Source: Escherichia coli
GTDB lineage: Bacteria; Pseudomonadota; Gammaproteobacteria; Enterobacterales; Enterobacteriaceae
Direction: 5' to 3' (one strand)
Assembly (NCBI RefSeq): GCF_013122565.1
Contig: NZ_CP053258.1
Length of the DNA stretch: 64,000 nucleotides
Both the position numbers and the translations under genes were made by a program. Position 1 is the stretch's first letter. Each line of letters starts with the position of its first letter. Under the pieces are notes generated by a model. That model made no database searches. It saw only the letters and a program-made list of their open reading frames with translations, and was not told where the DNA came from. Positions 47,264 to 51,098 of this stretch are shown here, piece after piece.

Positions 47264-49225
47264 TTACCCTTTTCGCTTCGGCAATGTTTTCAGCAGCTCA
47301 TCCGGACTTACGGATGCCACTACGCTTCCCGGTAACGGCATTTTCAGTATGTGATTTTTGATTTTGCCAATGACGTGCATCTCGCATGGGCGGCAATCAA
47401 ACTTTAGCGTTAATACTTCATCGCCGTTAACCAGTTGCATTGGCGTCGCCTTCCAGCTTTTGATATTGCCTTTCGCCTGTTTCGGGCACAGATTAAAGGC
47501 AAAGCGCAGACAATGCTTGGTGATCATCACCGGGACTTCGCCCTTCTCTTCATGTGCCTCATACGCCGCGTCAATCAGCTGCACACCATAGCGATGATAA
47601 AATTCACGCGCTTTCTGGTTGTAAACGTTCGCGAGGAAACTCAGATGCGTTTGCGGATAAACCGGCGCAGGATCAGCAACCGGTTTACGGCTGCCGCGCT
47701 GGTAACTGGCAAGACGTGCAGCATCCAGCATGTCGGCGGCTTCGCGGCGGAACTGGTTTAACAGACTGTTTGGTACAAACAGCGCACCCGGCAAATTAAT
47801 TTGCACATCGCGGGCGTAATAGAGGGTTTGACCCAGTTTTGCAAGGCCATCCTTTAGATTGTTCATTGCTTTTTCGGCGTTATTGGCTTCGTCGAACTGC
47901 CCGTCCAGCGTATGCGTGATGCTGACACCCTCTTCACTGGTGAGGGTCAGAATCAGTTGTTCCTGCCAGCCGCCCAGTTCAATGTCTACCGCCACCCGAC
48001 GTTCGCTGGAGGTTTTTGTCAGTGCCTGCTGCCAGTTATGATCAAGATTACGGTTTAGTGGGTGATGCGGGCGAATTTTGTGCAAATCTGCTGGCATTTC
48101 ATTGGGCCAGACGCGGTACTGATTTTCTCCGGTTTTCTCGACCGTATTGGCACGAAAACCGACGACTTCACGTTTAATCAACACGTTCAGGCCATCGCCA
48201 TTTGCCAGTGGCTCGGTAACGGCAACATCGAGATGATCTTTCGCCACTTTCACTACTTCACCTACCGGCAGGCCGATAAATTTCGGCGAATCGAACGCGC
48301 CAATATCGCCTTTACGGGCATTCACAAAATAATCTGTGCTACCACGGTGGAAAGTCTTTTCCGTCGATGGAACAAAGAAATGTTCAGTACGACCTGATGA
48401 AGCGCGCGCCAGATCGCCACGTTCTTCAATAATGGCATCAAGCATCTGGCGATAATGGGCGGTGATATTCTTCACGTAGCTCATATCTTTGTAACGCCCT
48501 TCAATCTTGAAGGAACGTACGCCAGCATCAATCAGCGCGCCGAGGTTGGCAGTCTGATCGTTATCTTTCATCGACAGCAGATGTTTTTCATAGGAAACCA
48601 CCCGCCCCTGATCGTCTTTCAATGTGTATGGCAAACGGCACGCTTGCGAGCAATCGCCACGGTTGGCGCTACGCCCTGTTTGCGCATGAGAAATGTAGCA
48701 CTGACCCGAATAGGCCACGCACAGTGCGCCATGAATAAAGAATTCAATGGTCGCGTCCGTGGCCTGGTGAATCGCGCGGATCTGATCAAGATTCAGCTCT
48801 CGCGCCAGCACAATCTGCGTGAAGCCAACATCAGAGAGGAACTTCGCTTTTTCTACTGTACGAATGTCGCACTGCGTACTGGCGTGCAGTTCAATCGGCG
48901 GAATATCAAGTTCCAGAATCCCCATATCCTGAACAATCAGCGCATCGACGCCGGTCTGGTAGAGGTCGGTAATCAACCGTTGCGCGGGTTCCAGCTCATC
49001 ATCATGCAAAATGGTGTTAAGCGTGACGAAAATTTTTGCACCATAACGATGGGCAAACGGCACCAACTCGGCAATATCTTTCAGGCTATTACTGGCATTA
49101 TGACGGGCACCAAAACCAGGGCCGCCGATATAAACAGCATCGGCACCGTGCAAAATAGCTTCGCGGGCAATGGCGGCATCGCGTGCCGGGCTTAACAGTT
49201 CAAGTCGATGAGAAGATACGGTCAC
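47264..49225 (-). CDS. ydcP: Peptidase U32-family protein, collagenase-like (653 aa)
   Basis: Track ORF 47264..49267 (667 aa, GTG start); 653-aa form from in-frame GTG at 49225 chosen by recalled K-12 length; cysteine-rich U32 core CVAYSGQCYISHAQTGRSANRGDCSQACR. Confidence 0.82.
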   Translation of the reverse strand: MTVSSHRLELLSPARDAAIAREAILHGADAVYIGGPGFGARHNASNSLKDIAELVPFAHRYGAKIFVTLNTILHDDELEPAQRLITDLYQTGVDALIVQDMGILELDIPPIELHASTQCDIRTVEKAKFLSDVGFTQIVLARELNLDQIRAIHQATDATIEFFIHGALCVAYSGQCYISHAQTGRSANRGDCSQACRLPYTLKDDQGRVVSYEKHLLSMKDNDQTANLGALIDAGVRSFKIEGRYKDMSYVKNITAHYRQMLDAIIEERGDLARASSGRTEHFFVPSTEKTFHRGSTDYFVNARKGDIGAFDSPKFIGLPVGEVVKVAKDHLDVAVTEPLANGDGLNVLIKREVVGFRANTVEKTGENQYRVWPNEMPADLHKIRPHHPLNRNLDHNWQQALTKTSSERRVAVDIELGGWQEQLILTLTSEEGVSITHTLDGQFDEANNAEKAMNNLKDGLAKLGQTLYYARDVQINLPGALFVPNSLLNQFRREAADMLDAARLASYQRGSRKPVADPAPVYPQTHLSFLANVYNQKAREFYHRYGVQLIDAAYEAHEEKGEVPVMITKHCLRFAFNLCPKQAKGNIKSWKATPMQLVNGDEVLTLKFDCRPCEMHVIGKIKNHILKMPLPGSVVASVSPDELLKTLPKRKG

Positions 49226-49297
49226 ATTCTTATCCAGTAGCTGAAAAATGGCGGCTATTTTAGCCACAAGCGCGACGTTGCGAAATAGTTTTCCCGC

Positions 49298-49834
49298 TTA
49301 ACTGCGCGGGTAATGGATGAGGGAATGAAAATGTACGGTTTGCTCCCCACCATTACGATAGACATGCGTGACGTCTGCAGCAAATCGAACGCCTTCCCCA
49401 CAATTAAGGCTCTGCCATTCACCATCAACGCACAGATCAAGTTGTCCATCAATGACGACGACATGTTCGATTACCCCCTTCTCATGGGGCGTCGATTCGC
49501 TTATTGCACCGGGTGCCATCTGAATCGAGAAGTGTTCAAAGCAGAGTTGTGGATCATAAGGAAACAGCGAAATGATCACCATCGCCTGCTGTTGTGGATC
49601 ATAAACTGAAGGCGTAGCGGACTGTGGCGGAGAAATAAATGTCGAAAATGGCACGTTCAACCCAGTGGCAATTTTCCATAATGTCGCGACCGTCGGGCTG
49701 GACTCATTACGCTCAATCTGCCCTAACATCGCTTTAGAAACGCCCGTCGCTTCTGCCAGTCGCGAAAGACTCCAGCCGCGCTGCTGGCGTAGTTGTTTAA
49801 GTGTGGTGGATAAAAAGCGAGCGAGATTTTCCAT
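49298..49834 (-). CDS. ydcN: XRE-family HTH regulator with C-terminal cupin domain (178 aa)
   Basis: Track ORF 178 aa; N-terminal HTH LRQQRGWSLSRLAEATGVSKAMLGQIERNESSPTVATLWKIA. Confidence 0.85.
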   Translation of the reverse strand: MENLARFLSTTLKQLRQQRGWSLSRLAEATGVSKAMLGQIERNESSPTVATLWKIATGLNVPFSTFISPPQSATPSVYDPQQQAMVIISLFPYDPQLCFEHFSIQMAPGAISESTPHEKGVIEHVVVIDGQLDLCVDGEWQSLNCGEGVRFAADVTHVYRNGGEQTVHFHSLIHYPRS

Positions 49835-49925
49835 GCGACTCCTCCGGCAAAACGGAAGTTTATCACTTGTGCGTTATAACGGACAAATGCTACGGTGCCT
49901 GTACGCTATAACGCACGAGGTGACT

Positions 49926-51098
49926 ATGCGTCTGTTTTCTGTTCCTCCACCCACGCTACTGGCGGGGTTTCTGGCGGTATTAATTGGCTACGCCAGTTCA
50001 GCGGCAATAATCTGGCAAGCAGCGATTGTCGCCGGAGCCACCACTGCACAAATCTCTGGCTGGATGACGGCGCTGGGGCTGGCAATGGGCGTCAGTACGC
50101 TGACTCTGACATTATGGTATCGCGTACCTGTTCTCACCGCATGGTCAACGCCTGGCGCGGCTTTGTTGGTCACCGGATTGCAGGGACTAACACTTAACGA
50201 AGCCATCGGCGTTTTTATTGTCACCAACGCGTTAATAGTCCTCTGCGGCATAACGGGACTCTTTGCTCGTCTGATGCGCATTATTCCGCACTCGCTTGCG
50301 GCGGCAATGCTTGCCGGGATTTTATTACGCTTTGGTTTACAGGCGTTTGCCAGTCTGGACGGTCAATTTACGTTGTGTGGAAGTATGTTGCTGGTATGGC
50401 TGGCAACCAAGGCCGTTGCGCCGCGCTATGCGGTAATTGCCGCGATGATTATTGGGATCGTGATCGTTATCGCGCAAGGTGACGTTGTCACAACTGATGT
50501 TGTCTTTAAACCCGTTCTCCCCACTTATATTACCCCTGATTTTTCGTTTGCTCACAGCCTGAGCGTTGCACTCCCCCTTTTTCTGGTGACGATGGCATCG
50601 CAAAACGCACCGGGTATCGCAGCAATGAAAGCCGCCGGATATTCAACTCCTGTTTCGCCATTAATTGTATTTACTGGATTGCTGGCACTGTTTTTTTCCC
50701 CTTTCGGCGTTTATTCAGTCGGTATTGCGGCAATCACCGCGGCTATTTGCCAAAGCCCGGAAGCGCATCCGGATAAAGATCAACGTTGGCTGGCAGCTGC
50801 CGTTGCAGGCATTTTCTATTTGCTCGCAGGTCTGTTTGGTAGTGCCATTACCGGGATGATGGCTGCCCTGCCCGTAAGTTGGATCCAGATGCTGGCAGGT
50901 CTGGCGCTGTTGAGTACCATTGGCGGCAGTTTATATCAGGCGCTGCATAATGAGCGTGAGCGCGACGCGGCGGTGGTGGCATTTCTGGTAACGGCAAGTG
51001 GATTGACGCTGGTCGGGATTGGTTCTGCGTTTTGGGGATTAATTGCCGGAGGTGTTTGTTACGTGGTGTTGAATTTAATCGCTGACAGAAACCGATAA
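49926..51098 (+). CDS. ydcO: BenE-family membrane transporter (390 aa)
   Basis: Track ORF 49665..51098 has an implausible N-extension; ATG at 49926 gives MRLFSVPPPTLLAGFLAVLIGY, divergent from ydcN. Confidence 0.82.
   Translation: MRLFSVPPPTLLAGFLAVLIGYASSAAIIWQAAIVAGATTAQISGWMTALGLAMGVSTLTLTLWYRVPVLTAWSTPGAALLVTGLQGLTLNEAIGVFIVTNALIVLCGITGLFARLMRIIPHSLAAAMLAGILLRFGLQAFASLDGQFTLCGSMLLVWLATKAVAPRYAVIAAMIIGIVIVIAQGDVVTTDVVFKPVLPTYITPDFSFAHSLSVALPLFLVTMASQNAPGIAAMKAAGYSTPVSPLIVFTGLLALFFSPFGVYSVGIAAITAAICQSPEAHPDKDQRWLAAAVAGIFYLLAGLFGSAITGMMAALPVSWIQMLAGLALLSTIGGSLYQALHNERERDAAVVAFLVTASGLTLVGIGSAFWGLIAGGVCYVVLNLIADRNR

Follow-up and report, generated by a model that had tools for sequence, protein, structure and literature searches.

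Translation start of Escherichia coli rlhA (ydcP) and the in-frame GTG codon 42 nt upstream

The minus-strand open reading frame (ORF) at positions 47264–49267 of the E. coli DNA analyzed here (the window, a stretch of 64,000 nucleotides from contig NZ_CP053258.1) is rlhA (ydcP), whose product is the 23S rRNA 5-hydroxycytidine C2501 synthase. We conclude, with a probability of roughly 0.93, that translation of rlhA starts at GTG 49225 to give a protein of 653 residues and that the 14 codons upstream are a non-coding stretch forming the core of the gene's own promoter. The 667-aa ORF that starts at GTG 49267 is an ordinary longest-ORF artefact running into this promoter. GTG 49225 is already the start in RefSeq and in the K-12 reference, and the choice of start is therefore known and not a new finding. 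A preliminary description of this DNA regarded the start as ambiguous. This view is not supported, since conservation, a mapped transcription start site (TSS), and a weak Ribo-RET peak all favor GTG 49225, the start in the reference annotations.

The gene and the open frame upstream of it

Of 5426 complete E. coli genomes, 5413 contain a region 95–100% identical to the locus, annotated there as rlhA downstream of sutR. RefSeq gives the name rlhA in all genomes inspected. The neighbors in the window are ydcO, sutR/ydcN, yncJ, hicA, and hicB, as in K-12. With the start placed at GTG 49225, the product does not differ from K-12 RlhA (YdcP, b1435, NP_415952.2; peptidase U32 family) at any residue, as compared with the protein of K-12 MC4100. 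This identity to the characterized K-12 protein covers the Cys residues reported to be essential, and the 80 nt upstream of the rlhA start are identical to those in MG1655. Hydroxylation of C2501 by the identical K-12 RlhA is a result from the literature (PMC5727448). In the PGAP/RefSeq annotations, the rlhA coding sequence is 1962 nt long and starts 72 nt after sutR, that is, at GTG 49225, in every genome inspected (a strain 100% identical to the window, K-12 MC4100, MG1655, and three variant strains). The MG1655 gene b1435 occupies 1506781..1508742 and has the same start. Thus, the preliminary description correctly named the gene as ydcP (now rlhA) and correctly gave 653 residues for the K-12 protein.

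Two domains are found in the 667-aa ORF in the order of Peptidase_U32 (PF01136, 255.5 bits, residues 93–319) and DUF3656 (PF12392, 74 bits, residues 405–519). NCBIfam has no equivalog model for RlhA, and only models of paralogues matched, all under their cut-offs. TrhP (YegQ) and UbiU (YhbU) were rejected as identities of the window protein, since their scores (171 and 139 bits, respectively) fall far short of the equivalog cut-offs (534 and 440 bits, respectively). Both paralogues have the U32 fold in common with RlhA, and their N-termini open directly at the ELL(S/C)PA strand. The TrhP and UbiU profiles align from residues 21–22 of the 667-aa ORF, at profile positions 4 and 1.

The two in-frame GTG codons on the minus strand are located at 49267–49265 and 49225–49223, 42 nt (14 codons) apart as described previously. 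The ORF encodes 667 residues from the upstream codon and 653 residues plus the stop codon (47264..49225) from the downstream one; the latter extent is given by the annotation, the identity to K-12, the Pfam domains, and the start-codon alignment. No in-frame ATG, GTG, or TTG exists between the two codons. A start downstream of 49225 was also rejected, since there is no ATG, GTG, or TTG before the conserved LELLSPA motif and a later start would remove the motif. The nearest in-frame stop upstream of rlhA is the TAA codon (49300–49298) of the upstream gene sutR (ydcN; 49298..49834, minus strand), which bounds the ORF and lies 10 codons (31 nt) upstream of GTG 49267. Only the chance phase of this codon, with no further stop between it and rlhA, gives rise to the 667-aa ORF. 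A 667-aa form would carry the N-terminus (M)AKIAAIFQLLDK. The 14 codons stay open in every Escherichia sequence examined. Three polymorphisms were found within the 42 nt and, in this small sample, all of them would be non-synonymous if the stretch were coding. Of the 46 ORFs in the window with 200 aa or more, 32 have a second in-frame ATG, GTG, or TTG within 20 codons of the first possible start, and the pair of GTG codons is not beyond chance expectation.

The best duplex with the anti-Shine-Dalgarno (SD) sequence before GTG 49267 has an energy of +1.2 kcal/mol, which means effectively no SD. The value before GTG 49225 is −3.1 kcal/mol, with a weak GGAU at 49235–49232. The earlier impression by eye that neither codon has a strong SD is consistent with these values.

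The start of the neighboring gene ydcO (49665–51098, plus strand) is called in three ways. The longest ORF, of 477 aa, begins at GTG 49665, which would imply an overlap of approximately 170 nt with the oppositely oriented sutR, PGAP places the start at ATG 49887 (403 aa), and the MG1655 protein (b1433, NP_415950.4) has 391 residues. The question of the start is more open for ydcO than for rlhA.

Conservation of the start among orthologues

A set of 80 orthologous loci, with one genome per species and 75–99% identity over the N-terminal 250 residues, was aligned at the start. In alignment with GTG 49225, 72 of the 78 non-Escherichia species have ATG; in the remaining six loci, the alignment begins a few residues further in. 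Among the 80 species, E. coli and E. albertii are alone in having GTG at this position. The situation upstream of the aligned start should be noted. None of the 72 species with ATG has a start codon at −14, 26 of them have an in-frame stop inside the 14 upstream codons, and 36 have no in-frame start of any kind ahead of the upstream stop. Among the sequences examined, those from Escherichia (E. coli and E. albertii) are the only ones with an equivalent of GTG 49267.

Close homologues open with MRLQSHHLELLSPA, which is in residue-for-residue register with (M)TVSSHRLELLSPA in E. coli. The orthologues from Salmonella, Enterobacter, Citrobacter, and Pseudomonas (annotated as a 654-aa "U32 family peptidase") have the same N-terminus, seven residues ahead of LELLSPA, and a −10 box approximately 35–45 nt upstream as in E. 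coli. These orthologues use ATG, whereas Escherichia uses GTG. The leader in Escherichia is approximately 6–7 nt shorter than theirs, and residues 2–7 are TVSSHR in place of RLQSHH. The GTG codon, the shorter leader, and the divergent residues 2–7 in Escherichia (49223–49235, minus strand) fit the published idea that E. coli tunes RlhA expression to a low level.

More distant homologues give the same register. Among 150 representatives of diverse homologues at 50% identity, the similarity to the 667-aa query begins at residues 15–23 in all but three; one of the exceptions begins at residue 10, and the other two are internal fragments. Of the 144 representatives with an ELLxPA motif, 134 have it at their positions 2–14, while the 667-aa form would have it at position 23. 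Database versions of RlhA homologues with 660–668 residues are merely other calls of an upstream start.

In translation, the extension gives an impression of weak conservation in some Enterobacteriaceae (…TIAAIL…). The underlying DNA block GACTACAATAGCCGCCATTTT, whose E. coli version is GGCTAAAATAGCCGCCATTTTT, is conserved in Enterobacteriaceae, is read in differing frames, and is broken by indels of 1–2 nt. The faint conservation of the peptide is therefore explained by conservation of the block as DNA, not as a reading frame. Conservation of the 14 N-terminal residues across orthologues had been proposed as a check on the start. Judging from the alignments, with a start at −14 in 0/72 species and stops in 26/72, the extension is not conserved as protein. 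The stops, the indels, and the limits of homology likewise indicate that the 13 codons following the upstream GTG (49226..49264) are non-coding.

Transcription and translation around the two GTG codons

In the favored reading, the 14 codons back to GTG 49267 constitute the core of a sigma-70-type promoter of rlhA. The core consists of the −10 hexamer TAAAAT (49262–49257), the TSS at 49250, and a 25-nt leader, and GTG 49267 belongs to the spacer that follows the −35 element, off the rlhA-only mRNA. In SMRT-Cappable-seq Supplementary Data 2 (NC_000913.3; PMC6131387), a unit containing b1435 alone starts at 1506756, corresponding to a C at 49250 in the window. Numbered from this TSS, GTG 49267 is at −17, between the −35 and −10 elements. 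The rlhA-only mRNA thus begins 17 nt past GTG 49267, and this codon is absent from it. The leader of this mRNA (49226..49250, minus strand) is 25 nt long and includes the weak SD-like GGAU. The accessible part of the Cappable-seq tables from 2016 gave no match for the rlhA start region in either coordinate system.

The −10 hexamer found in the promoter scan (49257..49262, minus strand) occupies −12 to −7 relative to the published TSS. A −35-like hexamer, TTCGCA (49279..49284, minus strand), matches TTGACA at four of six positions and is separated from the −10 hexamer by a 16-nt spacer. The combination TTCGCA-16-TAAAAT gave one site in the scan against 1.5 expected in shuffled sequences, and the −35 element is conserved only moderately or loosely. 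The −10 element is TACAAT in nearly all Enterobacteriaceae, and 64 of the 80 species have TAnAAT at 33–48 nt before the start codon, where the chance rate is roughly estimated at 0.05 per 60-nt stretch. Across Enterobacteriaceae, the nucleotides of the −10 element and the adjoining AGCCGCCATTTT are conserved without conservation of the reading frame. A sigma-28 SELEX peak near ydcN (PMC5493296) is approximately 500 bp upstream and was set aside as irrelevant to the choice of start.

The discriminator and early leader (AGCCGCCATTTT) and a GGATAA sequence 10–16 nt before the start (49226–49256, minus strand) are conserved in Enterobacteriaceae beyond what a promoter needs, as seen approximately 45 nt upstream of the ATG in loci L005–L022. 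This conserved segment could be a site for a regulator or a site acting at the RNA level.

The same SMRT-Cappable-seq data (PMC6131387) contain units starting at 1506153, which hold sutR alone and sutR together with rlhA (b1434|b1435). Position 1506153 is 49853 in the window. Since the sutR-rlhA unit begins there, GTG 49267 is present on the read-through mRNA. Only 19 nt separate the sutR TSS at 49853 (minus strand) from the downstream sutR ATG at 49834, in the short divergent region between ydcO and sutR.

On the read-through RNA, GTG 49267 forms the 5' end of a hairpin, GTGGCTA-AAA-TAGCCGC (49267..49251), and is therefore paired. The hairpin has seven pairs (four of them G-C) and a 3-nt loop, is followed by CAUUUUU, and appears in both the minimum free energy (MFE) and centroid folds. 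The scan for terminator-like patterns detected the whole element (49244..49267, minus strand), which overlaps the rlhA promoter. A second small hairpin, CCCGC…GCGGG (49301–49310/49292–49296, minus strand), spans the sutR stop codon. The presence of sutR-only and sutR-rlhA units suggests partial termination at these hairpins. The fold of the whole region is no more stable than those of shuffled sequences (z = −0.76), and a structured leader was dropped as a candidate on this basis.

Ribosome profiling had also been proposed as a means to choose between the two codons, and it gives a weak peak at the annotated start. In the re-analyzed in vivo Ribo-RET data of Meydan et al. (PMC9825163, Table S2), ydcP has 5.89 CPM at 1506781 and is scored TRUE. 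The rule applied there is a peak of at least 5 CPM at 12–18 nt from the start codon. The ydcP peak is thus barely over the threshold, in a data set in which just 780 annotated starts pass according to the authors (PMC9825163). The 12–18-nt range does not distinguish GTG 49225 from an out-of-frame ATG at 49227. INRI-seq, performed in vitro, gave no peak at the annotated ydcP start in any of five replicates (PMC9825163), on a template that began 30 nt upstream of the start and did not include GTG 49267. The absence of a peak fits a weak initiation site. The accessible portion of the supplementary text of PMC9825163 mentions no alternative initiation site for ydcP, which is a weak negative. The TRAINSPOTTER N-terminomics data do not list ydcP, rlhA, or b1435, and no N-terminal peptide of RlhA was found in the published data searched.

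With AUG in place of the "unusual GUG start codon" of rlhA, ho5C2501 in exponential phase is reported to rise until it is almost complete (PMC8754641). The mutated GUG is presumably 49225, judging from the BW25113 annotation cited by the authors. The native-promoter and mobile-plasmid constructs of Kimura et al. 2017 were considered as evidence on the start and were put aside, since they do not discriminate between the two GTG codons.

An out-of-frame ATG directly followed by TGA (AATGTGACC; AUGUGA, 49227–49222, minus strand) overlaps the rlhA GUG in the window and in K-12. This "start-stop" mini-ORF has the same weak ribosome-binding site as the rlhA GUG. The nucleotide T49226 is polymorphic: the window and K-12 have AAT, and E. 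albertii and three of the four variant E. coli inspected have AAA. Over the 110 nt surrounding the site, two or more differences from the window, at whichever positions, are carried by approximately one-quarter of the 5413 E. coli genomes. It is conceivable, and in our estimate quite improbable, that the start-stop traps ribosomes at initiation and that this, combined with the weak GUG, keeps RlhA sub-stoichiometric. The published change of GUG to AUG would also destroy the AUG-UGA element if the mutated GUG is 49225. If the start-stop acts in this manner, strains might differ in the level of RlhA and in the stoichiometry of ho5C2501.

Other readings of the 42 nt and implications

Is GTG 49267 the true and only start, so that RlhA has 667 residues with an N-terminal extension of 14 residues? 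The codon opens the longest ORF, and both the codon and the open frame are present in all Escherichia sequences examined. However, other species lack the extension or have it disrupted by stops or frameshifts, and no SD precedes the codon. The mapped TSS is downstream of it, the weak Ribo-RET peak belongs to the downstream start, and all reference annotations give 653 residues. The three would-be non-synonymous polymorphisms also speak against a coding stretch, within the limits of their small number. The position of the TSS and the conservation data effectively refute this reading, which we regard as having almost no chance of being correct. A milder version is that both starts are used, with most RlhA being the 653-aa form made from the rlhA-only mRNA and a minor 667-aa form being made from the sutR-rlhA read-through mRNA, for example by re-initiation at GTG 49267 after termination at the sutR stop 31 nt upstream. 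The b1434|b1435 unit from 1506153 that is listed in the SMRT-Cappable-seq data, and a sutR stop that is in frame and only 10 codons away, would suit such a mechanism. Contrarily, GTG 49267 has no SD and is paired in the hairpin stem on that very transcript, the extension is not conserved beyond Escherichia, and the part of the PMC9825163 supplement noted above names no second ydcP initiation site. Use of both starts is therefore very unlikely, and we infer that no meaningful initiation takes place at GTG 49267 on the read-through transcript.

The other alternative concerns the function of the 42 nt, not the start codon. The stretch may be mainly the intrinsic terminator of sutR, composed of the hairpin at 49267–49251 and the U-run, in which case its conservation would reflect termination and not the promoter. 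The terminator-like pattern found by the scan, the presence of the hairpin in both the MFE and centroid folds, and the occurrence of a sutR-only unit beside the read-through unit are in line with this possibility. Nevertheless, the conserved block persists where the upstream DNA is unrelated to sutR (e.g., L007, L009, and L012), and the stem is mismatched there, as it is in other Enterobacteriaceae. The capped 5' end is located exactly 7 nt after the −10 box, and the accessible part of the SMRT-Cappable-seq supplementary data (PMC6131387) provided no 3' end or termination-site coordinate in 150674x–150676x. We consider a mainly terminating role unlikely, albeit less so than the use of both starts. 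The region is non-coding whether it is a terminator or a promoter, and the conclusion on the start codon is unchanged.

With GTG 49225 as the start, the upstream GTG (49265..49267, minus strand) is an unsupported start codon, being confined to Escherichia, lacking an SD, and lying inside the −35/−10 spacer and the hairpin stem. The relevance of this case is mainly one of annotation hygiene: the longest-ORF rule over-extends rlhA by 14 codons into its promoter. The weak GUG itself has already been studied as the cause of limiting RlhA and of sub-stoichiometric ho5C2501 in growing cells (PMC8754641).
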